Shown: positions 33,076-48,388, counted from the stretch's first letter. The stretch: 64,000 nucleotides of DNA from Candidatus Freyarchaeum deiterrae (GCA_037305845.1 CP147778.1:1952001-2016000); one strand, 5' to 3'. The notes: a model not told the origin generated them from the letters alone. Made by a program: numbers and translations.

Positions 33076-34080
33076 TTAAGACATTTTAGTTCTTAGTTTA
33101 AGTGGTTTTCCAAGGGATTTGTCGTATACGAAGAGCACTTCCTCGGAATCGAGTCCTATCTCTCCAATTATCGTGTTGTCCTCAATGAACTTGCTTTTGT
33201 AAATCACCCTTATGGGTTCACTTAACCCCAAAGTTACTATAAGGCGGTCTTTGAGTTCCCGTATGGTTTCTTGTTTATCGATCGCGTATTCGATACCTTC
33301 TAGTTTGTATTTGTCGCTACAGATTATGCATTTAGGATTTCTTTCTAGTTTAATTGTTGTAAAGCTTTGGCTCATTCCATCATAAAACAAGTAATTATCA
33401 ATGAGCGGAGATAAGCCAAGTAGTATTTTGATAGTATCTTGTGCTTGGATGCCGCTAAGAACTGCTGTAATAGTTGAGACCGAGGGAAACTTAGACTGTT
33501 CAACTTCAACTTCTAACTTTTCTCTCTTCTTACCTGGTGGTGTGCATGATTTTTGGAATCTCTCACGAGGGAGAAGTGGCTGGCACTCCAGACATGGTGT
33601 TAAATAAGGTATTATGACCTGAATATTACCATACCATCCATACATCCCGCCGTGGACTAAGGGTTTGTTAAGGCTAACACATAAAGAGTTCAGCCAACGT
33701 CTTGCCTCAAAGGTATCAAGTCCGTCAACAATCACATCGCTTTCCTCGTAGTATTTGCGAGGCACGTTAATAATACTCTCATTTCGGTCTATAACTTCAA
33801 CGTTTGGATTAATTTCTTTAAGTTTTTCCGCTGCTACCTTCGCTTTAAATTTGTCAATATCGCTTTCAGTAAATAAAAGCTGACGATTAAGATTAGATAA
33901 TTCAATAGTATCCATGTCTACAAGTATTAGCTTTCCTACTCCAGCTAAAGCCAATAAAGCCGCAACCATTGACCCCAATGCACCGACGCCAGATATGAGG
34001 ACAGTTGATTTCTTAAGTTTGTCCTGATTCCACCCCTCAAGCAGTTCCTGTCGATGATATCTACTGTCAACTTTTTTCAA
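33076..34080 (-). CDS. Ubiquitin-activating enzyme E1-like
   Basis: GVGALGS, D.IELSNLNRQ, CLEC and CIIC Zn sites, candidate catalytic Cys in KSCT, C-terminal ubiquitin-fold-like extension. Confidence 0.9.
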   Translation of the reverse strand: MKKVDSRYHRQELLEGWNQDKLKKSTVLISGVGALGSMVAALLALAGVGKLILVDMDTIELSNLNRQLLFTESDIDKFKAKVAAEKLKEINPNVEVIDRNESIINVPRKYYEESDVIVDGLDTFEARRWLNSLCVSLNKPLVHGGMYGWYGNIQVIIPYLTPCLECQPLLPRERFQKSCTPPGKKREKLEVEVEQSKFPSVSTITAVLSGIQAQDTIKILLGLSPLIDNYLFYDGMSQSFTTIKLERNPKCIICSDKYKLEGIEYAIDKQETIRELKDRLIVTLGLSEPIRVIYKSKFIEDNTIIGEIGLDSEEVLFVYDKSLGKPLKLRTKMS

Positions 34081-34126
34081 GGCTAAACCCTCTTAAAAGG
34101 TATATAGTATGTAGTGGTTAAAAAAA

Positions 34127-34585
34127 TTACTTTCCAAGATTGTTCCAGGTAGCATATTTTTTGACGTGCTCCTTTGCAGTTTTAGAGAAATCATCCAAAT
34201 TTTTGGTCATTTCTTTAGCTGCTAGTGTGTTTAAGGGGGAATGAGGATTTGGATAATTAAGGAGATTTCTTAGGGTTTCTATTACACCCGTTATGCTCAT
34301 GCTAGGTAGCCAATCCTTGCCCAAAATATTTACACACACGTTTTTTTGAAATATGTTGGGATGCCAGATATCAGTATTCCAAACCACTTTTGGGGGCTCA
34401 TAAGGAAATTTTCTTGGGAGGATTATCTCTATTTCAAATACGCCTGACTCGTATATTCCCGTCCCTATAATAAACCCCGTCCACCTTCTCAAGTCTCCAT
34501 CAACTGGGTGAAAAGACGGTTCTTCTTCTTCCATTTGTTTAGCTTCGTATACAAGTCTTGCTTCGTATTCTTCGTCTGATAGAAT
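34127..34585 (-). CDS. Ubiquitin-conjugating enzyme E2
   Basis: FPYEPPKV, WHPNI, catalytic C in NVCVNIL, W.P, PNPHSPLN. Helix 1 lies upstream of the ATG at 34534, implying an ATT start at 34585. Confidence 0.92.
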   Translation of the reverse strand: MLSDEEYEARLVYEAKQMEEEEPSFHPVDGDLRRWTGFIIGTGIYESGVFEIEIILPRKFPYEPPKVVWNTDIWHPNIFQKNVCVNILGKDWLPSMSITGVIETLRNLLNYPNPHSPLNTLAAKEMTKNLDDFSKTAKEHVKKYATWNNLGK

Positions 34586-35063
34586 CTTGATCCCACCGGG
34601 TGCGCATTATTTAATAACTTCCTGAAAGTGGATACTGTCTCGTATCTATAAATTTTTAATGATTCTTAATTAAGAGAGGGAAGAAAGACTTTATAAACTC
34701 GTAGCCAAAAGGCGGAGTATTTTCTCCTTTTTAAATTGAATAATTTCATATAGCCTTTACTAGTACAGAGAGATTTTGGTTGTTTGAACTACGCGTTTTA
34801 GGAGGCGTCTTTCAGACCCCGGGTTAGTTCTTTCTTCGCTTTTCTCAGCGTAGCCAAAGGCTTATTAAAATATTTTAAGCGCCATGCTTTCAATCTTTTT
34901 TAATTTCTATGCCTTTAGGCAACTTTCTCTCTTATCTTTGAGAGTATCTTACCTGATATTTATATTAATTAGAAATTTAAAAACATATTCGGGAGTCGCA
35001 AACTATAAATAGTTTAAAAAAATGATGGTTTTCTTTGCGTTTCAATGAAAAAAGGTAGCGTTT

Positions 35064-35303
35064 TTAGTAGGGTCCTCCCTCAGTTCGGGTAACAAGGTAT
35101 AATTTGTCGTAGGGCTGAACGCCAGCTTTTTCTAGTGTTGTATCGTTTTCGAGTTGCTGGCCTCTGTACACCAGAATTAGAGTTGAGGCAGGTACTCTTT
35201 TTTTCTTAGCTACCTGAGATTTTATGTTCTCTATTCCCGACTCAGGATCAACATCGAACTCCAAAACCTCTCCGCCAATTGCTGAAACTATTTTTACTAT
35301 CAT
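35064..35303 (-). CDS. Eukaryote-like ubiquitin precursor (GG-PY)
   Basis: VDPESGIENIK, LVYRGQQLENDTTL, LYLVTRTEGG then PY; ATG after GGTGA. Confidence 0.9.
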   Translation of the reverse strand: MIVKIVSAIGGEVLEFDVDPESGIENIKSQVAKKKRVPASTLILVYRGQQLENDTTLEKAGVQPYDKLYLVTRTEGGPY

Positions 35304-35308
35304 TTTAC

Positions 35309-35560
35309 TCACCATTTCCTAACTTCTTTAATATCAAGTGGTTTTGAGCAGTTAGGGCAGAAGCCCTTAATCTTTAACCACTCCAATAGATGGTCGCGAT
35401 GTGCCGGGAGTCCACAGAATGGGCAGTAAACTCGTTTCTCATCTTCCCTGATTTTTAGATTACATACTATGCACCTTGCAGGCTTTGAAAAGTCCCATGT
35501 GCCTATAACTTTGACATCGGATACTGTGAATCTTTCAGAGTGGGCTTCCTGCACCTGCAT
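35309..35560 (-). CDS. Small RING-finger protein (putative E3)
   Basis: CIVC-x12-CPFC-x4-H-x2-H..EWL-x5-CPNC; stop lies 5 bp before the ubiquitin start. Confidence 0.87.
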   Translation of the reverse strand: MQVQEAHSERFTVSDVKVIGTWDFSKPARCIVCNLKIREDEKRVYCPFCGLPAHRDHLLEWLKIKGFCPNCSKPLDIKEVRKW

Positions 35561-35844
35561 AACCTCCAATTAGGTGGTATTTAAGTTATACTTAGCATTC
35601 TGTTATTATAATTTTTTTGATTGTGACATTTTTCTACTTTTAAATTCTTTGAGCTTAATTTTTAAAGCAATTTGTGAAATCCTTTTATATTGTAGATTAA
35701 TTTTATTAGAGACATAAGCCTAAATAAAACCAAGAATTACTACTAATCCTCCCATTCGGGAACTTTATTTGGGCAAGTTAAGCTTGTTTGCAAGGCTTAG
35801 ACTGCTTAAACCCTAAAAAAACTTAAGAACCGGTTTCAGGGGCG

Positions 35845-36306
35845 ATGAGTTTGCCAGAACAGAAAGAGAAAGTAAAAATTCAGATAGATGCTATTAAGAC
35901 GCCCGCGGGTGATGTTCCTACTGTGGACTCCTTAAAAAGGGTTGTAGACGGTTTAAACGTCATGAACTCCGATATGGCTAACCTTGGTACGGACGTATCA
36001 AAAAATATGTCCTCTATGGATAAAGAACTCAGAAACATTCGCAAGTTAATCGCTGAAGAAACGGTTTCCTTCGAAGTGATGTCACAGAAACTGGAGAAAG
36101 TTGGTAACCAGTTAGAAGTGTTGGCCAAGAGTGAAAAAGAAAAGTGGGAAGCTCTTCAAGGAATCATGATGGATGTAGGAGAAATTTTAAAAGGCTTTCA
36201 AGCAACTCTCGAGGAGTATGTCTCAAGGGTTGACCGCAGAATAAATGAAACGCTTAAGGCATTAGCGGAAATAATTGCAGTCACCGCTAAAGAAGAGCAA
36301 AAATAA
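35845..36306 (+). CDS. Coiled-coil protein of unknown function
   Basis: Continuous heptad pattern, no TM segment. Confidence 0.7.
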   Translation: MSLPEQKEKVKIQIDAIKTPAGDVPTVDSLKRVVDGLNVMNSDMANLGTDVSKNMSSMDKELRNIRKLIAEETVSFEVMSQKLEKVGNQLEVLAKSEKEKWEALQGIMMDVGEILKGFQATLEEYVSRVDRRINETLKALAEIIAVTAKEEQK

Positions 36307-36434
36307 TATCCTAAAACTTAATTTTTGAATAAGATCAGAAAATAGAACTACCTAGAAGTTTTTATTCTAACAATGGTTTTTCAGATGAGTTCCTTTAAAA
36401 AGGTGATATGAGATAAAAAAAGGAGGAGGGTATT

Positions 36435-38231
36435 TTAACCTATTACTAGTTGGGGTTCCTTTCTAACATATTTTCCTTCGCCTTCAATAGTGTAGGACAA
36501 CGAAATTTCCTGTCCCGGCTCTATTCTCTGGAAGTTCCATGTGAGTATCAACTCGTTAATGTTCTCTGTTACCTTGGGTTGTACTTCTTCTGGTTTCCAC
36601 TCAACCAAATTAAAACCTTGTGGGATAAAGTCTTTTACGGTAACGTTTGTCATGCTTACTTCTCCGGTGTTCACAATAACTAGTGGGACTACGTGTTGCC
36701 CTGCTTTCGCTCCTGGAGATACAGCTTCTTTGTATATCTTAACTGCACGACGAGTGTACTTAATTCCAATTTTTGGAGGTTTGCTTTCCAGCTCCGAGTA
36801 CTCCACGTCAGGACCAGGTTGTGTTGTGTTGCCAGTTGCTCTCAATGGAGTTGGATAACTCTTTTCAGGTTTTGGCTCCCAAGCCATCATTGGGTAAACG
36901 CATTTAACGGTTTGCCCCGGGTTTATCCCTCTCACGAGGCTTTTCATATTCTTGACGAAAACTGTTAATCCATGTCTTACTGTGGAGTTGTCGTCGTTAG
37001 GATTTGTTATAATCTCTATACCTTGAGATAATTCTTTTTCATTCACATAAATTTTTACACGTTCGTGTGCGGGGGGTTTAAAGTCCTCTGGGATAGTATC
37101 GTATATTGTCACCTGATCTAGTGCGGCGCTTCCTATATTTGATATTAAAACCGTTACAGTCATCGGTGTTTTATCATAGGCGTCTACTTGGGCTGGTGTG
37201 AAAGTTTTTTCCGCTAGAATTCTCTCCACTGGAAGCATAGTATCCTCCTTGGTAATCTTAGAATACACGTGGCGGGTTACCTCTTTAACTGCTTTGTAAT
37301 CGATGTTTGTTTCGAAGACGGGCATTGTGGGGCTTTTGACGTTAAACTTGTACTCCCACGATTGTTTTGGAGGAACATCCTTGTTAGGTTCCAAAGAAAG
37401 AAGCTGTTCTTTCTTCTCTCCCTTGATTTGGAAGATTTCCACCTTTAGGAGTCTTTGTAGAAATTCACTCGTGTTCAAAAACTCGATTGTACAATCCCAT
37501 GTTGATGGGTGTGAAGGCGACTCTGATGGTTCTATTGCAAATCTACTATCTGAAATTGCTGTGATGTCCGGGTTTAGCAGTGACCTAGTTCTATCTTTAA
37601 TGTGGTATTCTGCTATAACTTTGCCTGCACCAATTGGTTCTATGGATTCGGCAGTGATTCTTAATTTAACAACCAGAGTGGCGTCGCTTCCTGCTGACAG
37701 TTCAAAATTCTTCCATACGACCTCTCTTGATTCCGATTCAAACTCAGCGGCTCCTGTATTCGGCGGCTCTATTTCTGGATCTCCAAAACCCTTTGGTATA
37801 ACTTTTCGTATTTTTATACTGTCAATATATGTATCAGTTGGGTTGCTGACTGTGATAGTGCAACTTACAGGCATCGGTCTCTTGTACACTAAGGCCCAGT
37901 TAATTTGCTCATCTTCATCACAAGTGTCCACTGTTTCCTTCAATTTGAGAACTGTTTCCTCAACAGGCACATTATACTCTTTCGCCCAATTGTTACCTGC
38001 TAAGACTGCACCAACTGGTATAACGCTCTCTTTCAATGATGTGGTTTCTATGCCTCCGACTCGAATTTCACCGTTCCATATCCTGTTTTTTGAACTCTGG
38101 TTATTAACGGAGATAACTCCTCTTACTTTTAGGCTTTTAATCTCATGTTTCTCGGTTAAAACGCAGTCTTCGTTCTCAGTCACATCCAAGTTTAATTTTA
38201 AACCTTCTGAGCTCACAATTGTTTCCCTCAC
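36435..38231 (-). CDS. Cytoplasmic multi-beta-sandwich protein with N-terminal mu-homology-domain (adaptor mu/delta-COP)-like region
   Basis: LNLDVTE...IKSLKVRGVISV and KIRKVIP...GAAEFESESREVVWK resemble the mu2 C-terminal domain; further DUF11-like repeats; no signal peptide. Confidence 0.6.
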   Translation of the reverse strand: MRETIVSSEGLKLNLDVTENEDCVLTEKHEIKSLKVRGVISVNNQSSKNRIWNGEIRVGGIETTSLKESVIPVGAVLAGNNWAKEYNVPVEETVLKLKETVDTCDEDEQINWALVYKRPMPVSCTITVSNPTDTYIDSIKIRKVIPKGFGDPEIEPPNTGAAEFESESREVVWKNFELSAGSDATLVVKLRITAESIEPIGAGKVIAEYHIKDRTRSLLNPDITAISDSRFAIEPSESPSHPSTWDCTIEFLNTSEFLQRLLKVEIFQIKGEKKEQLLSLEPNKDVPPKQSWEYKFNVKSPTMPVFETNIDYKAVKEVTRHVYSKITKEDTMLPVERILAEKTFTPAQVDAYDKTPMTVTVLISNIGSAALDQVTIYDTIPEDFKPPAHERVKIYVNEKELSQGIEIITNPNDDNSTVRHGLTVFVKNMKSLVRGINPGQTVKCVYPMMAWEPKPEKSYPTPLRATGNTTQPGPDVEYSELESKPPKIGIKYTRRAVKIYKEAVSPGAKAGQHVVPLVIVNTGEVSMTNVTVKDFIPQGFNLVEWKPEEVQPKVTENINELILTWNFQRIEPGQEISLSYTIEGEGKYVRKEPQLVIG

Positions 38232-38377
38232 TAATTCTTAGACTGAATCAATTTTACTCTTAATTTTTGCTTGTATAAATTATTACACTTCAAGATTCTT
38301 TAACCTTTTTACCCAAATATATGGTAGTAATCTTCTATGATTACAAGTTGGCGCTCAAATTTTACTTATTGAGTTGT

Positions 38378-39067
38378 CTAATCTATCCTAAACTCCGTTC
38401 CCGCTGACCATTTAACACTTATTTCATCACCGGGTTTCATTTTCCTAAACTTGGTGCTTGGTGCTACAGTTTCCGCATGGGTAAAGAAGTATTCTATTTC
38501 AGGGTCTGTTCTAATATGCATAGGTATGGCAAGTTGAGGCTTAATGTCCGCAATAGCAGATAAAGATTGATTACTGTTGAAGGCTTCCGTTTCATCGACT
38601 CCGATTAGTACGACATCGATTGGATACTTTTCTAAAAATCCCTTAGTCATGGCGTCGCCGAGGTGTGCTACGCGTACACCTTCTATCTCCACTATGAAAC
38701 TCAGATTTGGTACTTCAACAGGTGCTACAGAGGGACCGTGTTTAAGATCCAGAGCTGTAATTTTTACATTCGGTCTATCAAAACGTTCTCCGCTTTTCAT
38801 TTTTCTTACGAGCCATTCTGGGGTGCCTTCTTTTAGCGCTATGTTTATGACGTATTCATTTCCGAGTACAAACGCCTTCTGATTTGAAGAAAGCTTGGCT
38901 GTGTTCCCTAAATGATCCTTATGTTCATGTGATACGCAGATAATGTTTGTTTTTTCAGATTCTGGCACACATGCTTTATCACCTAGTATTCCCGGGTCGA
39001 ATACTACGCTGACCTTCGGTGAATAAAATTTGAAGGCTGCGTGTCCAAAGTATTTTAACATCGGCAT
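38378..39067 (-). CDS. MBL-fold metallo-hydrolase (UPF0173-like)
   Basis: YFGHAAF, DP, SHEHKDH, HLGD, AIPMH. Confidence 0.88.
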   Translation of the reverse strand: MPMLKYFGHAAFKFYSPKVSVVFDPGILGDKACVPESEKTNIICVSHEHKDHLGNTAKLSSNQKAFVLGNEYVINIALKEGTPEWLVRKMKSGERFDRPNVKITALDLKHGPSVAPVEVPNLSFIVEIEGVRVAHLGDAMTKGFLEKYPIDVVLIGVDETEAFNSNQSLSAIADIKPQLAIPMHIRTDPEIEYFFTHAETVAPSTKFRKMKPGDEISVKWSAGTEFRID

Positions 39068-39388
39068 GTCTAATCCACCATTTCATTATTAGTCATAATA
39101 CAGAATTAGATTACTCATGAAAATCGGTCAAGTAGTGTTTAGTATCTAAGACAATGATTGAGAGTCTCAATAGTTAAAATAGAAGTTTGGTTGTATTTTT
39201 AGTTTTTGGTACTTTATAACAGGATTGTTTAGAAATTTTCTTTTTTTGGAGGAAATAACCCGATTCGCTGTTAACAAATACGAATTAATATGTTTCTTGT
39301 TTCTAGTTTTCTGAGAAAAGATAAATAGCTTTAGGATAACTAATATCACATAGACGAATTATTGAATTACTTTTTGTGGTGAACTGAC

Positions 39389-39964
39389 TTGGAAGAAAAA
39401 TCAAATAAAGACAGCTCCTCGCATCGAGAGCCTGTTGATGACGCGTCTCTGGATAAGCAGTTTGACAAAGTTGAAGAAATAACTGTGATTGAACTAGAAG
39501 AACTAGCCGACGCACTAGAGTTCATTTTGGATTTGCAGCCACATGTTTGTGTAATCCGTGGTATCGACTATCCCTGTATACTATGCGAATTAAAATGTGA
39601 CGTCGGGAAATGTCAAGAGATAAAAATAATGCGGGGAAAAGGATTAAAAACGATTAACAGTTCCACACTCTCCCTAAATTTCGAAAAGAGGGACTCGTTT
39701 GAAGAATACTTGATCAGTAAATTAGTTCGAGAGCTAACTCGGGAGAAGCTTAACATTATTGACCCAGAAGAGGGTTACGATATAACATTCTTTTTCAAGC
39801 ATGAAGACCGATGGAGAAAAAATGAAATTATAGTTTTCATACTCGGGCTATTTGACAGAGTAAAAATACTTATGCCTGAAGCTAAGGCGTTAGTAAATAC
39901 CTGGATAAGAAATAAAGTGAAGGGTTTTGAGAGAGAAGAGACTCTTAAAAAAATGAAAGAGTAA
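39389..39964 (+). CDS. ARPC4 (Arp2/3 complex 20 kDa subunit)-like protein
   Basis: INS..S....D..E..L..K..R, P.EGYDI.F, K..I..F, E.K..VN...R match the ARPC4 pattern. Confidence 0.72.
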   Translation: MEEKSNKDSSSHREPVDDASLDKQFDKVEEITVIELEELADALEFILDLQPHVCVIRGIDYPCILCELKCDVGKCQEIKIMRGKGLKTINSSTLSLNFEKRDSFEEYLISKLVRELTREKLNIIDPEEGYDITFFFKHEDRWRKNEIIVFILGLFDRVKILMPEAKALVNTWIRNKVKGFEREETLKKMKE

Positions 39965-40075
39965 AACGCAAAGGATTATTTATTAACGAATTAATGCATT
40001 CACGTATTTAGAACTTAGATGCGTTTGAAACTTCTTTAAATATCTGAAAAAATAAGGGTAAAGAGAGCTTGGTCT

Positions 40076-41347
40076 TTACTCTTCGGGTAGTTTATTCTCA
40101 GAAGCCGAGGCTCCCTCTGTTGCTTTCCCAGTTAGTGCGTTTATTTGCTGCTGTATGGTTCTCATTTCTCCACGAATTCTTGCTCTCTGCGCAGCATACT
40201 CAGCTTTCTGTAAAGCTCCAGCCTGGTACCTTTTAGTAATATAGTCTAACTGGCTCCCAAGAGAGCGCGACCTCGACTCTAAGCTCTCTAACTCTTCGCG
40301 TTTGGCTGCATCAGTCAGTAGAGGTGAGGTTGCTGGTATCGAACGTGTGCTCGTACGAATTGTTTCAGAAATCTTTCCTTGAGAAAGCACCCTCGCTGCA
40401 AAGTCTCTAAATTCATCGAGAAACACATCAAATCTCTTTCTCAGAGTAACAACTTCACTCATTAACTTGTCAATTTCAGGCGTGTAGGCAGCAGCTATTG
40501 ATTGCGTTGTTTTTGCCCTGCCTTGCAAAGGTCTTGTAGCCAGAACTGGTTTAACTCTTTCCTCAACCAACTCCTCCTCTTCCTCCTCCTGTGGAGCACT
40601 TGATTCTGTTACCTCTTCTTCCACTACTTTTTTAGAGGCTGGTTTGGTGGGGGCGACTTTGGGTTTCGAAGGTATAACCACCCATTTAAATATATTTTTT
40701 AACAGAACCATATTTTGTGAAGTATTAAGTCCACCCATTATTCGATCCCTGAACATTTCATACGATCCTAGGGCAACAACTTTTCCGTTCCCATAATTAG
40801 AAACAGCCAAAACAGGGGCATCGGGCGGCTGTGCAGTTCTGCTTGTGATAGCTAATGCTTCTGCTTCTCCCACGAGTTTTATGCTGCAGCCCGCGGAATA
40901 AGCTAATTCTGATAGTCCTTCGGTTACAGGGTGATCCTTAAATTTCGTAATTTTGGGAAGGTTTTCCATACCTAGATTTTGTCTCTCATCAAATAACTGA
41001 TTATTCTGAAATGATACTCCAAAATTCTCGGCTAACTCGTTAAGATTGGTTCTCAGTCCGGGATCACCGCCCGCATGGCTTAATAAAACAACTCCACCAC
41101 CTCTGGAAACAAAATCTAAAACAGTTCTGATTTCTGCGGGTTGTATCTTAGACTGATCTGGACAAGGAAAAACTAACGCATTGAAATCCTTCAATTTATC
41201 CAGGGTGATTGGAAAATCAACAAATCTTATGCTCTGAATACCCTCAGTTTCCAATACTCCTTTGACAGCTGAATAACTAGTAGTGATACGTCCGCGTTCC
41301 TTTTGCGTTTCATCAAAAAGGACACGCCACTTAATTTCAGCCAACAA
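40076..41347 (-). CDS. GIFT (GldG/IFT52)-domain protein with low-complexity linker and C-terminal helical hairpin
   Basis: VLFDE..KE, ITLDKL, FVSRGGGV.LL..GG....TNLN.LAENFGV; TTG start after GGAGGT; no signal peptide. Confidence 0.72.
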   Translation of the reverse strand: MLAEIKWRVLFDETQKERGRITTSYSAVKGVLETEGIQSIRFVDFPITLDKLKDFNALVFPCPDQSKIQPAEIRTVLDFVSRGGGVVLLSHAGGDPGLRTNLNELAENFGVSFQNNQLFDERQNLGMENLPKITKFKDHPVTEGLSELAYSAGCSIKLVGEAEALAITSRTAQPPDAPVLAVSNYGNGKVVALGSYEMFRDRIMGGLNTSQNMVLLKNIFKWVVIPSKPKVAPTKPASKKVVEEEVTESSAPQEEEEEELVEERVKPVLATRPLQGRAKTTQSIAAAYTPEIDKLMSEVVTLRKRFDVFLDEFRDFAARVLSQGKISETIRTSTRSIPATSPLLTDAAKREELESLESRSRSLGSQLDYITKRYQAGALQKAEYAAQRARIRGEMRTIQQQINALTGKATEGASASENKLPEE

Positions 41348-41538
41348 TAAACCTCCTATCATCGGATGAGTAAACACTTTCAACCTATTTTTCAAAAGGC
41401 TCTAAAAAAATATTTTAGAACTAACCTTTTAACCTTTTTTTCTATTCAGGTATTTAAGAACCTCAAATAATATTTTGTCGCTCATAATTAATAAAATTTT
41501 ACTATTTTTACGCAATATATTTCCATGGTGAATCCCAA

Positions 41539-41961
41539 TCAAAGGTCTATAAGGAAAAGACCTGTAGCTTCATCCTCGCTACGATTAATTTTTCTACTGA
41601 TTTCCATCAAAAATATTTCACAAGTAATAGACACAATACACCCATTTAAAACATGCCCACCTAATGCTCTTCCCTCCCTATCACCAACCACTATGTGGGC
41701 GTGAACTGTGGCTTTCCCCTCGCGATAGGAGATGTTCCCAATACAAGAAACCACTTCCAAATCAGATTTCAATTTTATGGATTTATATTTGTCTTTATCG
41801 AAAAAGCCTATATTAGCTTCGGATAAGGCTCCAATAGCGCTGAAAAATCCGGAAATCAAATCATATTTTTTGGCCAGCGTCTCAAGAGAATCCAGTAAAT
41901 CCTCTCCCTTTTCCAGTTTCGCTACAATAATTCTTTTACTGGAAGATTCTATTGATTTCAT
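41539..41961 (-). CDS. PPC/DUF296 domain protein
   Basis: LEKGEDL, AIGAL, EVVS..GNI, HAH, GGHV. Confidence 0.9.
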   Translation of the reverse strand: MKSIESSSKRIIVAKLEKGEDLLDSLETLAKKYDLISGFFSAIGALSEANIGFFDKDKYKSIKLKSDLEVVSCIGNISYREGKATVHAHIVVGDREGRALGGHVLNGCIVSITCEIFLMEISRKINRSEDEATGLFLIDL

Positions 41962-42172: not shown

Positions 42173-44875
42173 ATGTCTGAAAGGGTAGGTCTGCTAAAAT
42201 ATATACCATCTACTCCTGCCCAGAAAACCGAAGACCCCCTAAAAAAAGCAGAAGAAGCAGAGACGGGTCTCGTAGAGACTAACGAAGAAGAAGAGGGCAG
42301 TGAAGAAGAAGAGGAAGAAGCAGAAGAAGTAGAGTTCAAGGGTCTGCCTTACTTCTGCCCAGAAAATTATGAACCTGGATCACTGCTATCAGTAGAATAT
42401 GATGGAAAAAATAACCTTGCCTTCGCACGTTTATACGATTCTAAAAACAAGAGACTCTTTTGTTGGTATGATAACACCAACCATCATCCCTATTGTTATT
42501 CTGATCTCGACGAAGAAAAATTAAGAGCATTCAGAAACGGTCAAGTGGTAAAACACAAAGGTTTTCTAGGCTTAGAAGAAGTTGAGAAAATCGACCTCTT
42601 ATTAGATAAGCCTAAGAAAATGACAAAAATTTTGGCAACAGATCCACTTGCGATAGGTGGCACCAGTAGTTCCATAAGAGAAATCCTGCCCAAAGCCTGG
42701 GAAGCAAAAATCAGATACCATGATAACTTTATATTCGATAAAGACCTGATTCCCGGACTCTTCTACAGAATAGAAAAAGGGAATATAACTCCAGCCCCAT
42801 ATGAAATCCCTACTTCATTAAAAAAAGAATTAGAACTGGCTCTCGGAAACGAAGAAGCACCAGAATTCGAGGATGTGCTAAACGAATTCCTACCCCTGTT
42901 TCTAACACCAGTGCCCGATATTAAAAGAGCCGCCCTAGACATCGAAGTTTACGCACCCATAAGAGACAGGATACCCGACTCAACAGCGGCGGAAAATCAA
43001 GTAATATGCGTGTCTCTAGTTTCCAGCGAAAACGCGAACATAATTTTTCTTCTAAAGAGAAAAGAAGTTGAAACTGGAGATAAACCAAAAGACTTCCCCA
43101 AAGATGCTAGGATAGAGTACTTCGAAAATGAAGCTCAAATGTTAACAAGAGTTTTCAGAGCAATGAGCGATTATCCCATAATCCTCACCTTCAACGGAGA
43201 TAACTTCGACCTGAGATACCTCTACAATAGAGCTCTTAGACTCGGCATCAAGAACGAAGAGATACCCATAGTTCTAACCAAAGAATTCGCCTACATCTCA
43301 ACCTCCATCCACATTGATTTATACCGGTTTTTCCACAACCGTTCCATCCAAGTTTACGCCTTTTCAGACCGCTACAAAGAAGAAACACTGGACGCCATCG
43401 CCAAAGCCCTCTTAAACATCGGAAAAATCAGCCTCGACAAATCAATCCACGAGCTGTCACTACTCGATCTAGCTTACTACTGCTGGGGAGACTCATACAT
43501 TACACTGAAATTAACCCAATTCGACGATAATCTGGTCATGAAACTAATAATCCTACTCATGCGCATCTCCCGCCTCTCAATGGAGGACCTAACAAGACAA
43601 GGCGTCTCCTCATGGATAAAAAACCTCTTCTACTACGAACACCGCAGAAGAAACTACCTCATACCCCTCCCAGAGGAGATAAACCGCATAAAAGGAATAG
43701 GCCAAACAAAAGCAATCATCAAAGACAAAAAATTCAGAGGAGCCATCGTAGTCGAACCAGAAGCCGGAGTCCACTTCGACGTAGCCGTACTCGACTTCGC
43801 CTCCCTATACCCCAGCATCATAAAAGAATACAACTTGAGCTACGAAACCGTAAGATGCCCACACAACGAATGCAGAACAAACATAGTCCCAGAAACAAAC
43901 CACTGGGTATGCACAAAACGAAAAGGGATAACATCCATAATAATCGGCTTCCTAAGAGACATACGCATAAAATGGTTCAAACCAAGATCCAAATCCAGCT
44001 CACTGAAAGAAGAAGAGAGAAAATGGAACGCCATAATCGAAAGAGCCCTAAAAGTCTACCTAAACGCCAGCTACGGCGTCTTCGGCAATGAGCCATTTCC
44101 CTTTTACTGCTTACCAGTAGCCGAAAGCACCGCAGCCATCGGAAGATACGCCATCCAGCAAGCAATAACCAAAGCAAAAAACCTAGGACTACACGTAATC
44201 TACGGCGACACGGACAGCGTCTTCATAAAAAACCCCTCAGAAAAAAATATCACAGAACTAAGAAACTGGACCAAACAAGAACTCAGAGTAGACCTCGACG
44301 TCGATTCACGATATCGCTACCTATGTCTTAGCGAGAGAAAAAAGAACTATCTTGGGGTTTACATGGACGGGTCTGTGAATATTAAGGGTCTCACCGGGAA
44401 AAAGAGGAACACTCCACAATTCGCTCAACAAGCCTTCCTCAAAATGGTGGAAACTCTAAGCCATGTTCAGTCTGTAAACGACTTTGATAAAGCCAAGAAA
44501 GAAATCCAAGAAATTGCAAAAACCTGCTATAACAAAATAAAAAACAGGGAATTCAGCTTAGAAGATTTCGCATTCCACGTTATGCTGAGCAAAAATCTTT
44601 CTTCCTATACCAAGACCACACCGCAGCATGTTAAAGCTGCTAGGCAACTGAGTAAAAACGGGAAAGAGCTCAAACCCGGCGATATAATTTCTTTCGTAAA
44701 AGTCAGGGGTAAGGACGGAGTGCGACCGGTTGAACTTGCCGTTAAGGAGGAGATTGATACCGATAAATATAAAGAATATCTAAAAACTACATTCGACCAA
44801 ATATTAGATAGTCTCGGAATCAGCTTTGATAGAATTGTAGGAATAACAAAACTCGAAAGCTGGATGTCGGGTTAA
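42173..44875 (+). CDS. polB1: Family B DNA polymerase, PolB1 type
   Basis: DIEV, FNGDNFD, DFASLYPSII, KxxxNASYG, YGDTDS, KKNY; RCPH..C insert typical of B1. Confidence 0.93.
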   Translation: MSERVGLLKYIPSTPAQKTEDPLKKAEEAETGLVETNEEEEGSEEEEEEAEEVEFKGLPYFCPENYEPGSLLSVEYDGKNNLAFARLYDSKNKRLFCWYDNTNHHPYCYSDLDEEKLRAFRNGQVVKHKGFLGLEEVEKIDLLLDKPKKMTKILATDPLAIGGTSSSIREILPKAWEAKIRYHDNFIFDKDLIPGLFYRIEKGNITPAPYEIPTSLKKELELALGNEEAPEFEDVLNEFLPLFLTPVPDIKRAALDIEVYAPIRDRIPDSTAAENQVICVSLVSSENANIIFLLKRKEVETGDKPKDFPKDARIEYFENEAQMLTRVFRAMSDYPIILTFNGDNFDLRYLYNRALRLGIKNEEIPIVLTKEFAYISTSIHIDLYRFFHNRSIQVYAFSDRYKEETLDAIAKALLNIGKISLDKSIHELSLLDLAYYCWGDSYITLKLTQFDDNLVMKLIILLMRISRLSMEDLTRQGVSSWIKNLFYYEHRRRNYLIPLPEEINRIKGIGQTKAIIKDKKFRGAIVVEPEAGVHFDVAVLDFASLYPSIIKEYNLSYETVRCPHNECRTNIVPETNHWVCTKRKGITSIIIGFLRDIRIKWFKPRSKSSSLKEEERKWNAIIERALKVYLNASYGVFGNEPFPFYCLPVAESTAAIGRYAIQQAITKAKNLGLHVIYGDTDSVFIKNPSEKNITELRNWTKQELRVDLDVDSRYRYLCLSERKKNYLGVYMDGSVNIKGLTGKKRNTPQFAQQAFLKMVETLSHVQSVNDFDKAKKEIQEIAKTCYNKIKNREFSLEDFAFHVMLSKNLSSYTKTTPQHVKAARQLSKNGKELKPGDIISFVKVRGKDGVRPVELAVKEEIDTDKYKEYLKTTFDQILDSLGISFDRIVGITKLESWMSG

Positions 44876-44995: not shown

Positions 44996-45805
44996 GTGAT
45001 CAAAATTAGCGACAATAGGAACCTGTCTGGGGCAAACAAAATCGTGATTAAGATCGGGACGAGTAGCCTGACAGATGAAACGTTTAGGCTTGACCCACGT
45101 ATGGTCAAAAAGTTCACCAAAGAAATAATGGAGTTGAAAAGGCAAAACAAGAAAGTTATTCTAGTAACGTCTGGCGCTATCGGTGCTGGTATCGGGAGAC
45201 TCAATCTAAAGTCTAGGCCCAAAGATATGCAGTTGTTGCAGGCTGCGGCGGCAGTTGGACAGAACATTTTGATGAATACATATGATAGGTATTTCAGCAA
45301 ATACAATCAGACAATTGCTCAGGTACTGTTGACGTACGAAGACTTCTCAAACGGACATAGATATCTAAATCTTCGAAATACATTGATTACCTTGCTTAAC
45401 TCAGGAGTGATACCAATTATTAATGAGAATGACACCACAGCGGTGGACGAGATTAAAGTGGGTGACAACGACATGCTGTCCGCTCTGGTAGCAAGCAATC
45501 TTGGCGCAGATTTGTTGATTATTCTATCTGACATAGATGGTTTTTATACGTGTGATCCTAAGACAAGTAGGGAAGCCAAGCTGATCTCGACAATTGAGGA
45601 GATAACACCAGAACTTGAGCGAATCTGTGGAAATGAATCGTCGAGAGGAACGGGTGGGATGATGACTAAGATTCAGGCAGCCAAGATAACTATGAAGTCT
45701 GGCATTCCAATGATTATTGCGAATGGTGGGGAAAAAGCTGTCATAAGGAGAGTTATGAGCGGCGAATCGATTGGGACGATATTTCTGCCAAAGAAAGAAA
45801 AATGA
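44996..45805 (+). CDS. proB: Glutamate 5-kinase (no PUA domain)
   Basis: VIKIGTSSL, VTSGAI, AAVGQ, INEND, GDND, GTGGM.TK. Confidence 0.95.
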   Translation: MIKISDNRNLSGANKIVIKIGTSSLTDETFRLDPRMVKKFTKEIMELKRQNKKVILVTSGAIGAGIGRLNLKSRPKDMQLLQAAAAVGQNILMNTYDRYFSKYNQTIAQVLLTYEDFSNGHRYLNLRNTLITLLNSGVIPIINENDTTAVDEIKVGDNDMLSALVASNLGADLLIILSDIDGFYTCDPKTSREAKLISTIEEITPELERICGNESSRGTGGMMTKIQAAKITMKSGIPMIIANGGEKAVIRRVMSGESIGTIFLPKKEK

Positions 45806-45845
45806 AGCCAGAATCAGACCCAGAAATGATTCGGTGGTTATAGAA

Positions 45846-47153
45846 ATGGAACCCCAAAAAATAATGGAAAAAGCTCAAGCAGCGAGAAACGCTGCAATTA
45901 AGCTAGCCAACACTCCAACTAAGGACAAGGATAAAGCTTTACTTAGAATGGCTGAATCGATTAAACAGAACAAGAACAGAATACTTGAAGCCAACAGAAA
46001 GGATGTAGAGAACGCAAATAGAGAGAAGCTGCCAAAAGCACTGGTCGACAGGCTAAAGTTGGATGACTCAAAAATCGATGATATCACAAAAAGCCTAGAA
46101 AGTGTTGCAGGATTAGAAGACCCTGTTGGAAAAACGCTATCCGCCATTGAACTAGACAAAGGATTAGAACTTTTCAAAGTTTCTTGTCCCATCGGTGTGA
46201 TCGGCGCGATATTCGAATCAAGACCAGATGCCTTAGTTCAGATAGCCTCCCTTTGCCTGAAATCGGGCAACGCAGTAATCTTGAAGGGAGGCTCCGAAGC
46301 AAGGAACTCCAACGCAGTTCTGTTTGACATACTCCAATCATCAAGTCAGGGCATTCCAGAAGGCTGGATGCAATTGGCTGAGACAAGGGAAGACGTTAAG
46401 CAGATGCTGGAATTGGACAACTACTTAGACTTACTGGTTCCCAGGGGAAGTAACAAATTCGTGAAGTACATCCAAGAGAATACAAGCATCCCCGTCTTGG
46501 GCCATTCAGAAGGGATATGCCATGTTTACGTTGACAGAGATGCCGACCTAGACATGGCCGTAAACATATGCTATGATGCTAAAGTTCAGTATCCTGCAGC
46601 GTGTAATGCTGTAGAAACTATACTTGTTGATAAACCGATTGCAGGAGTGTTTCTGCCCGAGATTGCTGGTAGACTCACGAAGGCAGGGGTTAAAATCAAA
46701 GGATGCGGAGAGACGATAAAACTGTTGAAAAACTTCAAAATCGATGCAGTGGAAGATTGGCATGTAGAGTATAGCGACCTAATAGTATCAGTGAGAATAG
46801 TTGACGGTGTGGACGAAGCAATCAATCACATCAACAAGTATGGTTCTAAGCATACAGATGCCATAGTCACTGAGAATAGTGGAACAGCCCGTAGATTCTT
46901 GAACTTCGTTGATTCGTCCAGTGTAATGCATAATGCATCAACCCGTTTCAGCGATGGTTTCAGATACGGTAAGGGGGCAGAGGTCGGCATCAGCACAAAC
47001 AAAATACATGCGCGTGGGCCAGTCGGATTGGAAGGTTTAGTCATCTACAAATATCTGCTAGTTGGTAAAGGTAACACAGTAGCTGAATATATCGGACCAA
47101 ACGCCAAGAGATTCACACATAAAACACTGAACATTAAAAAATGGATGAGCTAA
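45846..47153 (+). CDS. proA: Gamma-glutamyl phosphate reductase
   Basis: FESRP, LKGGSEA, GICHVY, ACNAVET, NASTRFSDG, HARGPVGL. Confidence 0.96.
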   Translation: MEPQKIMEKAQAARNAAIKLANTPTKDKDKALLRMAESIKQNKNRILEANRKDVENANREKLPKALVDRLKLDDSKIDDITKSLESVAGLEDPVGKTLSAIELDKGLELFKVSCPIGVIGAIFESRPDALVQIASLCLKSGNAVILKGGSEARNSNAVLFDILQSSSQGIPEGWMQLAETREDVKQMLELDNYLDLLVPRGSNKFVKYIQENTSIPVLGHSEGICHVYVDRDADLDMAVNICYDAKVQYPAACNAVETILVDKPIAGVFLPEIAGRLTKAGVKIKGCGETIKLLKNFKIDAVEDWHVEYSDLIVSVRIVDGVDEAINHINKYGSKHTDAIVTENSGTARRFLNFVDSSSVMHNASTRFSDGFRYGKGAEVGISTNKIHARGPVGLEGLVIYKYLLVGKGNTVAEYIGPNAKRFTHKTLNIKKWMS

Positions 47154-47383: not shown

Positions 47384-48388
47384 ATGGAAGTTCGAAACTT
47401 ATTGATTCGAAACGTTCTACCTATATTAGACCCAGTGAGTATTGGACAGTCCGCCGACTCGTTTCTAGCTGATTACGGGGGATACATGAAGCAAATAGCC
47501 GCCGTTGCTAAGCATGACTCTGGATTTGCTTTATACGAAAGTAATGTGGCGCCCATTCATGAAAAGTATGGCGACTTTTTTTCCACGATTGCAAACATCT
47601 CGGAAGCTGCGGGAATCAAGCTTTATGCCGTTCTTTACACGTTTATAGACAGCTACTATGGTGTGGACCCTGCCTATAAGACTTTTAATGCTAATGATGT
47701 CGCTAATGAAAACTTTGTTTGCCCTGCTCGGGAACCATTCTGGTCATACCTTCAAAGCGTTGCCGAAGAAGTGATTAAATATCCTATAGCTGGTGTTATA
47801 CTTTTAGGAAACACTTTTGTGAGGCAGGAATTTTGCTTCTGCGAGAAATGCAAAAAAGAATTCTCAGAAGCTGCACAAATAGATGCTTCGTTCACTTGGG
47901 ATGGACTGAGGGACAACGATCAACTTTTCTCCAAGTGGTTAGATTGGAGAGCTGAAAAAATGTACAACGCTATATCTGGAATCTACAATGTGGTTAAGAA
48001 GAAAGAAGGATTAGACTTCTTAGTCGGCGTTGACATAGACCCCGAGGCAAACTATGAGAAGGGAGCATTCAGGCACTTCGGACAAGACGTAGAGAAACTA
48101 TCCGGAATATCAGGGCACTTATTAATGAGTGTTAACCCATGGTCTCCAATTCTGCCTAGCGCCGGTTCTCAGGAATATAACACCAACCTCGAAAAAATGA
48201 GATTCATCGACAATATAACCGCTCGTAGAAGAAAAGTCTCCTTCAAATACTGGACTCTAGCCGATGAAAACGACTACGACACAATTAAGAGTATAGCTTC
48301 AAGATTCAAAGCCACAAAAATAGTTGCAGACCTGGCCTTTCCAGAAAAATTCAGAATATGGAGAGAAGCACATCTAAGCATGGCCTAA
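47384..48388 (+). CDS. Glycoside hydrolase-like TIM-barrel protein (GHL10/DUF187-like) with CxCxxC
   Basis: AGIKLYA, VCP, CFCEKCKKEF, WLDWR, FGQD. Confidence 0.55.
   Translation: MEVRNLLIRNVLPILDPVSIGQSADSFLADYGGYMKQIAAVAKHDSGFALYESNVAPIHEKYGDFFSTIANISEAAGIKLYAVLYTFIDSYYGVDPAYKTFNANDVANENFVCPAREPFWSYLQSVAEEVIKYPIAGVILLGNTFVRQEFCFCEKCKKEFSEAAQIDASFTWDGLRDNDQLFSKWLDWRAEKMYNAISGIYNVVKKKEGLDFLVGVDIDPEANYEKGAFRHFGQDVEKLSGISGHLLMSVNPWSPILPSAGSQEYNTNLEKMRFIDNITARRRKVSFKYWTLADENDYDTIKSIASRFKATKIVADLAFPEKFRIWREAHLSMA

Follow-up and report, generated by a model that had tools for sequence, protein, structure and literature searches.

A ubiquitin, mu-homology, ARPC4-like and GIFT gene block in Candidatus Freyarchaeum deiterrae: a probable genus-specific assembly from a loose Asgard neighbourhood

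The window analysed here, a stretch of 64,000 nucleotides (nt) from Candidatus Freyarchaeum deiterrae (GCA_037305845.1, CP147778.1:1952001-2016000), contains a block of nine genes coding for a ubiquitin (Ub) cascade of E1, E2, Ub and a RING-type E3, a coiled-coil (CC) protein, a protein with a mu-homology domain (MHD), a metallo-beta-lactamase-fold (MBL) protein, an ARPC4-like protein and an IFT52-like GIFT protein. With a probability of roughly 0.75, this block is a genus-specific rearrangement that joined pieces of a loose ancestral Asgard neighbourhood, and not one functional unit; the pieces stand together because all of them derive from, or were inserted into, a region containing polB, a GHL10-like gene and the Ub-ESCRT genes, which is reshuffled from class to class. 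A preliminary description of this DNA, made from its sequence, had proposed a proto-trafficking locus. The folds on which that idea was built (MHD, ARPC4 and GIFT) and the C-terminal hairpin of the GIFT protein are recovered, but a module conserved beyond the genus is not.

Each gene of the block was sought in 60 relatives of the closed host genome (3,576,204 bp, labelled G000), and 60 regions of at most 20 kb each were mapped. Linkage was scored at family level from representative genomes, as the families in which two genes lie within 16 kb over the decidable families, with the host family f1 counted. The chance rate of linkage is ~1.3% per gene pair, and the family B DNA polymerase gene polB served as the control for linkage to Ub. 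Putative family names are Odin-like for f3 and for genome G011, Atabeya-like for f13, Thor-like for f7 and Heimdall-like for f5. The full order, running from E1-E2-Ub-RING through CC, MHD-MBL and ARPC4 to GIFT-PCC and polB, recurs only within the genus, where a single contig of G003 holds it in full; as a conserved module, the block thus fails the synteny comparison that the preliminary description had itself asked for. The sister family f2 distributes the genes over three loci (L135, L137 and L140), holding the Ub cluster, CC together with a more distant MBL-MHD pair, and the string ARPC4-GIFT-polB-GHL10-like-Zn ribbon-Vps23-Vps28-Vps22. Ub is linked to CC in 9/10 families, to Vps22 in 8/11, to polB in 6/12 and to the GHL10-like gene in 5/12, compared with 2/7 for MHD, 1/7 for ARPC4 and 1/5 for GIFT. 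Outside the genus, none of six decidable families has Ub near ARPC4 and none of four has it near GIFT, while the control polB is near Ub in 5/11. Every MHD, ARPC4 and GIFT orthologue found in the closed genomes G011, G021, G031 and G034 lies at least 59 kb from Ub. The genes also differ in their phyletic distribution. Ub, ARPC4 and GIFT are present in f3 and f20, where this query found no MHD; f7 has MHD and GIFT, and neither Ub nor ARPC4 was found.

The genes polB and GHL10-like, linked to each other in 11/14 families, are the centre of a loose neighbourhood that recurs in rearranged form in f1, f2, f7, f12, f13, f15 and others. Within it, MHD is linked to MBL (3/3), the GHL10-like gene (6/11), GIFT (2/5) and ARPC4 (1/6), CC to Vps22 (7/9), GIFT to polB (3/7) and ARPC4 to GIFT (2/4); ARPC4 joins the neighbourhood only in the host's taxonomic order. 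Recurrent links so far above chance make shared ancestry of the region likely. The wider neighbourhood also carries genes for a class I tRNA synthetase, HDAC, MinD, HerA and Rad50, and this mixed housekeeping content gives no support for one pathway. Liu et al. noted adaptin-domain/Vps23-Vps28 fusions and described most genes for eukaryotic signature proteins (ESPs) as being without conserved neighbourhoods.

Several observations speak against a mere rearrangement. The gene order is kept across the genus at ~80% protein identity, and the pairs MHD-MBL, GIFT-polB, MHD-GHL10-like and CC-MHD all exceed the chance rate by far. Furthermore, the distance between MHD and Ub in f12 is 12-15 kb, CC is found near MHD in f1, f2 and f12, and GIFT is found near ESCRT-II genes in f2 and f7. 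Some selection for co-location is conceivable, and the linkage counts come from families that are not independent and from genomes many of which are fragmented.

Layout of the block

The genes under discussion are listed below with their positions in the window.

33076-34080, minus strand: E1 ubiquitin-activating enzyme with C-terminal ubiquitin-fold domain (Pfam ThiF, E 1.8e-66; motifs)
34127-34585, minus strand: E2 conjugating enzyme, ~152 amino acids (Pfam UQ_con, E 3e-31; HPN..C motif)
35064-35303, minus strand: ubiquitin precursor ending TEGG-PY (Pfam ubiquitin, E 2.5e-14)
35309-35554, minus strand: stand-alone RING-type E3 (Prok-RING_1, E 5.6e-6, below cut-off; zf-RING_2, E 5.6e-5)
35845-36306, plus strand: CC protein with conserved N-terminal TPxGxVPT motif (asCOG005522 by position and homology)
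36435-38216, minus strand: soluble MHD protein, 593 amino acids (AlphaFold model, structure search)
38378-39067, minus strand: MBL protein with HEHKDH motif (Pfam, E 5e-23), directly upstream of MHD and co-oriented
39389-39964, plus strand: ARPC4-like protein with long C-terminal helix and four conserved cysteines (Pfam above cut-off; profile; model)
40076-41344, first in-frame start at 41395, minus strand: IFT52-like GIFT protein, ~422 amino acids (Pfam above cut-off; profile)
41539-41961, minus strand: PCC/PPC-domain protein, recurrent polB neighbour (Pfam, E 3e-32; gene maps)
42173-44875, plus strand: polB, family B DNA polymerase and hub of the loose neighbourhood (linkage counts)
47384-48388, plus strand: GHL10-like glycoside-hydrolase-fold protein, recurrent neighbour of polB, MHD and Ub (gene maps)

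All nine genes of the block, from E1 to GIFT, are confirmed at these positions. The four cascade genes, the MHD-MBL pair and GIFT are on the minus strand, with CC and ARPC4 interspersed on the plus strand. This mixed orientation, together with gaps of 111-478 nt, implies at least five transcription units, in line with the earlier caveat that the block is not one operon. The gap between Ub and E2 (34586-35063) measures 478 nt, is larger still in G003 and amounts to ~100-300 nt in most families; neither a notable open reading frame nor an Rfam match was found in it, and the Rfam search gave no match. Two RNA-library contigs of 159 and 206 nt, on Ub/RING and on E2, are too little to judge expression or co-transcription. 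A sigma-70 promoter scan stayed at chance level, the sigma-70 model being unsuited to archaea.

Between polB and the GHL10-like gene lies a proB/proA-like pair (AA_kinase and Aldedh; 44996-47153, plus strand), which is missing from the same-genus genome G003 (L139) and therefore looks like a recent insertion. The GHL10-like protein itself is unannotated, has conserved cysteines and is present in 48 of 61 genomes.

The ubiquitin cascade and its displaced ESCRT half

The E1-E2-Ub-RING genes and the divergent CC gene are one half of the known Ub-ESCRT gene cluster of Asgard archaea (Hatano et al. 2022, PMC9192718; Lu et al. 2023, 10.1101/2023.07.25.550441), the ESCRT-I/II half of which has moved by ~90 kb. 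In most families the CC gene heads the string CC-UEV-Vps23-Vps28-Vps22, divergent from RING-Ub-E2-E1; f5 has Vps23 and Vps28 fused. The host Vps23, Vps28 and Vps22 genes are located at G000:1,893,497-1,895,754, with Vps23 and Vps28 at 1,894,254-1,895,754, far outside the ~10 kb that was taken to define membership of the cluster, and the ESCRT-III genes at 2,271-2,277 kb (~280 kb off). An AN1 zinc-finger gene and a conserved Zn-ribbon gene adjoin the displaced Vps23-Vps28-Vps22 genes (G000:1,895,9xx-1,897,455; L164:6040-7455).

At the position of the CC gene, Lu et al. 2023 (10.1101/2023.07.25.550441) report the uncharacterised asCOG005522, in a cluster Ub-RING-asCOG005522-Vps23. The host gene is assigned to this family by its position and by homology to the G011 gene found there, not by accession. 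Searches with the CC family profile and in the Atlas returned generic coiled-coil matches only. From its N-terminal motif, the CC protein may form a trimer. The idea that CC is an Mvb12-like fourth ESCRT-I subunit was addressed with a complex prediction comprising CC, two Vps23 stalk/hairpin chains and Vps28, which scored 0.02 and is evidence neither for nor against it.

The ubiquitin cascade that had been recognised in the preliminary description is borne out, with E1, E2, Ub and RING genes adjacent to each other and with catalytic motifs and the di-glycine in place. E1 contains the nucleotide-binding motifs, CxxC motifs at residues 163 and 251 and a ubiquitin-like Pfam match at residues 263-318, and the position of the motif points to Cys179 as the probable catalytic residue. 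The E2 gene probably starts at a non-AUG codon, the ATT at 34585, upstream of the first ATG; its first helix is truncated by gene callers. At the equivalent column, 6 of 13 orthologues have ATG or TTG and 7, from five families, have ATT or ATA (window 34585 on the minus strand, L121, L123, L124, L137, L138 and L139), and a GGTGGG sequence is present 6 nt upstream of the host ATT. Only 5 nt separate the end of the RING gene from the start of Ub; although the best Pfam match of RING (E 5.6e-6) is below cut-off, the Cys/His pattern is present and the same family adjoins Ub in relatives.

The ubiquitin precursor ends in GG-PY and hence needs trimming. The block itself contains no JAB protease gene, and the precursor would be cut after the GG by a JAB protease encoded 77 kb away (G000:1,908,209). 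The trimmed Ub would then be activated by E1, handed to E2 and attached to substrates with the help of RING, and the ubiquitylated substrates would be read by UEV-Vps23/ESCRT-I, so that the cascade would feed a dispersed ESCRT system. Most likely the host cascade works as in other Asgards, for which ubiquitin transfer and UEV binding have been shown (Hatano et al. 2022, PMC9192718; Lu et al. 2023, 10.1101/2023.07.25.550441); for the host, the genes and motifs are present and the chemistry is deduced from that published biochemistry.

A second ubiquitin system is found at G000:1,908,209-1,916,072 (L165:3209-11072), comprising JAB, Ub (ending GG-F), E2, E1 and three RING proteins, followed by an AAA ATPase gene divergent from a RING gene and then by an SMC-like gene. 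The N-terminus of the AAA protein shares the TPxxxVPT motif of the CC protein (E 4e-8), so that the divergent RING and CC arrangement is echoed here; the match is present in all five same-genus genomes.

The MHD, ARPC4-like and GIFT proteins

Residues 9-330 of the MHD protein fold as a mu-homology domain, the two-subdomain beta-sandwich (PF00928) that is also present in AP medium subunits, delta-COP and muniscins, as judged from the AlphaFold model (mean pLDDT, the predicted local distance difference test, of 90.7) and a structure search. This part of the model superimposes on mu2, delta-COP and mu3A with Z-scores of 17.0, 16.3 and 16.2 and root-mean-square deviations (rmsd) of 3.1-3.4 over 216-223 residues. 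The best alignment is to AP2 mu2 (9fiw_M; Z 17.0, rmsd 3.3, 223 residues), the top six matches are all MHDs, and SGIP1 and mu4 are also among the MHD matches, which overall have Z 15-17. In a Foldseek search with the whole model, multi-Ig proteins dominate with poor superposition, and MHD chains have the best template-modelling score by target. From the strand list and the register of the hidden Markov model (HMM), a beta domain of ~85 residues appears to be inserted before the last MHD strand. The C-terminus consists of two Ig-like DUF11-type domains, which resemble pilin, cohesin and CLIPPER Ig folds. No signal peptide or membrane segment is predicted, in agreement with the description of the protein as signal-less.

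In mu2, the YxxPhi cargo pocket includes D176, W421 and R423. At the positions that, in an approximate register, may correspond to these residues, the MHD family commonly has an Asp in the first strand and an Arg or Lys in the last, and the Trp is not conserved. N-terminal extensions of MHD homologues gave no Pfam match to a longin domain, and the small-chain-like longin genes of the host genome are not linked to the block. Some members of the MHD family (P0095 and relatives; L169:5654) bear N-terminal HEAT repeats, thereby combining an adaptin-trunk-like and a mu-like part in one chain, and one member from f16 comprises 1,337 residues. Members labelled as Thermoplasmatota occur in the Atlas clusters of the family, which is a lead only. 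Stand-alone mu-domain proteins of Asgards are already in the literature; Eme et al. 2023 (Table S3, PMC10307638) include a near-identical Jordarchaeia orthologue as a PF00928 ESP.

The MBL gene had been regarded as an intruder in the block; instead, it is the most faithful partner of MHD. It adjoins MHD, co-oriented, in all 12 other genomes of f1, f2 and f7 that have this MBL, and MBL-MHD is a separate two-gene unit. The MBL of the Thor-like family f7 has lost its HxHxDH motif and yet stays beside MHD (L141:4912, L142:5589, L143:13574), a hint that the two are partners in a structural and not a catalytic sense. In f8, f13 and f15, MHD is followed directly by the GHL10-like gene in the same orientation, and GHL10/DUF4015 genes, matched by the HMM of the GHL10-like family, flank distant MHD homologues. 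Judging from these pairings, the probable role of the soluble MHD protein is to bind peptides or surfaces as a scaffold for partner hydrolases, and not to serve as a subunit of AP or COPI.

The assignment of the ARPC4-like protein likewise stands, since the whole alpha/beta fold of ARPC4 including the long C-terminal helix is recovered. The model aligns to ARPC4 with Z 15.6 and an rmsd of 2.4 over 148 residues, the next match having Z 4.8, and the family profile matches ARPC4 chains with E 6e-11. Asgard ARPC4 homologues have been published (PMC7444086; 10.64898/2026.10.28.762692). The host genome contains one actin-family gene only, at 1,781.9 kb (~210 kb off). The search for P34-Arc (ARPC2) is uninformative, as it gave no match in any genome, controls included. 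For the ARPC4-like protein, binding to actin filaments outside a complete Arp2/3 complex is the probable role. Among the regions L010-L015, L025, L027 and L029, the ARPC4-like domain of f3 and f20 is fused to an N-terminal region and, at the C-terminus, to a domain containing Cys, and that of f13 has a C-terminal extension. In terms of the block, the ARPC4-like and GIFT genes are convergent single genes, paired only in the host's order.

The GIFT protein consists of an IFT52-like GIFT domain of ~220 residues, an acidic linker, a short coiled coil and a hairpin like the steadiness box of Vps23, the tail spanning about residues 290-425 of the 439-residue open reading frame. Both the fold and the tail had been predicted correctly. 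The GIFT domain is above the Pfam cut-off (IFT52, 51 bits, versus DUF4350, 33 bits), and the profile matches IFT52 chains in two stretches with E 6e-27. Bacterial GIFT homologues exist at 24-28% identity, so that orthology to IFT52 is not established. The tail aligns to the steadiness box of Asgard Vps23 with an HHalign probability of 89.7% and a score of 33.9, compared with maxima of 18.1 for column-shuffled and 12.9 for reversed controls and ~21 for coiled coils, the tails having been preselected by motif; the alignment to the N-terminal hairpin of Vps28 reaches 85.5%. With HMMs of the two hairpins, unselected GIFT homologues are recovered at E-values as low as 5e-7 (Vps23) and 3e-6 (Vps28), and the GIFT protein of the window, taken by itself, has a weak score with the Vps23 model. 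Proteins named Freya/Jord, Thor and Loki preserve this architecture, and the GIFT orthologues of f3, f5 and f20 lack the hairpin. Nor is the hairpin specific, as at least five other G000 proteins have one. The protein probably oligomerises through this hairpin, possibly with ESCRT-I. No report of an Asgard IFT52-like GIFT protein with a steadiness box was found in the literature searched, although a prior listing in an ESP table is possible; UniRef labels the L. ossiferum orthologue as GIFT-domain-containing.

Alternative explanations and comparison with known systems

That the block is a dedicated proto-trafficking module, in which Ub tags cargo, MHD recognises it, the GIFT hairpin provides the link to ESCRT-I and the ARPC4-like protein couples to actin, is very improbable, although all folds are confirmed, the gene order is conserved across the genus and the eukaryotic counterparts of these families work in related processes. 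Conservation of the arrangement stops at the genus, Ub has polB as a neighbour in more families than it has MHD, ARPC4 or GIFT, at least five transcription units are involved, the MHD protein has no longin domain, the small-chain-like longin, actin and ESCRT genes are unlinked, and the genes differ in phyletic pattern. That genes of a genome rich in ESPs came to be adjacent by chance alone, without ancestral linkage, would agree with the behaviour of ARPC4, which is near the other genes only in the host's order, but for all other genes it is contradicted by the links repeated in several families, and it is extremely improbable. For MHD, membership of a glycan- or envelope-related unit with the GHL10-like and MBL proteins, unrelated to ubiquitin, is possible, if on the unlikely side. 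The co-oriented GHL10-like genes downstream of MHD, the linkage of the two in 6/11 families, the GHL10/DUF4015 genes beside distant homologues and the pilin-, cohesin- and CLIPPER-like C-terminal domains are consistent with such a unit. However, the MHD protein lacks a signal peptide, and polB is an even more frequent neighbour of the GHL10-like gene (11/14), which may thus be a hitch-hiker.

For the GIFT protein, a role as alternative ESCRT-I head subunit, replacing one Vps23 copy in a 2:1 Vps23-Vps28 complex, would explain its recurring position near ESCRT genes. The layout mirrors that of UEV-Vps23 (ligand domain, linker, coiled coil, hairpin), the tail and the unselected homologues match both ESCRT-I hairpins, the architecture is kept across the Freya/Jord-, Thor- and Loki-named proteins, and GIFT is within 16 kb of Vps22 in f2 and f7. 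The role is nevertheless distinctly unlikely in view of the promiscuity of the hairpin, its absence from the orthologues of f3, f5 and f20, the weak score of the window protein and the separation of GIFT from Vps22 in 5 families. A broader version takes GIFT for an ESP that is widespread among Asgards, has apparently not been described and uses its hairpin to dock on ESCRT-I as an alternative head subunit, and takes the polB/Ub-ESCRT neighbourhood, with MHD, GIFT and CC, for an eroded ancestral trafficking gene island. This version is quite improbable; if true, it would tie the ancestor of the IFT-B (intraflagellar transport) scaffold to ubiquitin-ESCRT sorting.

Under the preferred reading of a genus-specific rearrangement, the Ub-ESCRT cluster is split in this genus and its neighbours have been exchanged among Asgard classes. 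Eukaryote-like genes that stand side by side in a single genome thus provide weak evidence for a module as long as they are not compared with housekeeping controls. The analysis also puts the folds of three ESPs of a closed genome on a firm footing, and offers leads for further work in the GIFT protein with its ESCRT-I-type hairpin, the MBL-MHD pair and the uncharacterised CC gene, with which the ESCRT-I string opens in most families.

The Ub-ESCRT cluster, Asgard mu-domain proteins and Asgard ARPC4 homologues are already known. As in G011 and eight other families, the host E1-E2-Ub-RING genes are divergent from the CC gene; unlike the published cluster, the host has MHD, MBL, ARPC4 and GIFT behind CC instead of Vps23, Vps28 and Vps22, and the block is devoid of a JAB gene. 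Compared with the medium (mu/delta) subunits of AP and COPI, the host MHD protein is without an N-terminal longin domain, its MHD beginning at residue 9, and it differs from AP mu-type MHDs by the ~85-residue insert, the two C-terminal Ig-like domains and, apparently, the absence of a conserved Trp in the last strand. The N-terminal domain of the GIFT protein scores best against IFT52 (PF23355) and lower against bacterial GldG/DUF4350-type GIFT domains, but the match to IFT52 ends near profile position 239. IFT52 binds IFT46, IFT88 and IFT70 through its C-terminal region; the C-terminal half of the GIFT protein has a coiled coil and a steadiness-box-like hairpin. Finally, the ARPC4-like protein shares with ARPC4 (p20-Arc) the whole fold with its long C-terminal helix, and is distinguished from it by the four conserved cysteines of the Asgard protein and by the fusion of some orthologues to other domains.

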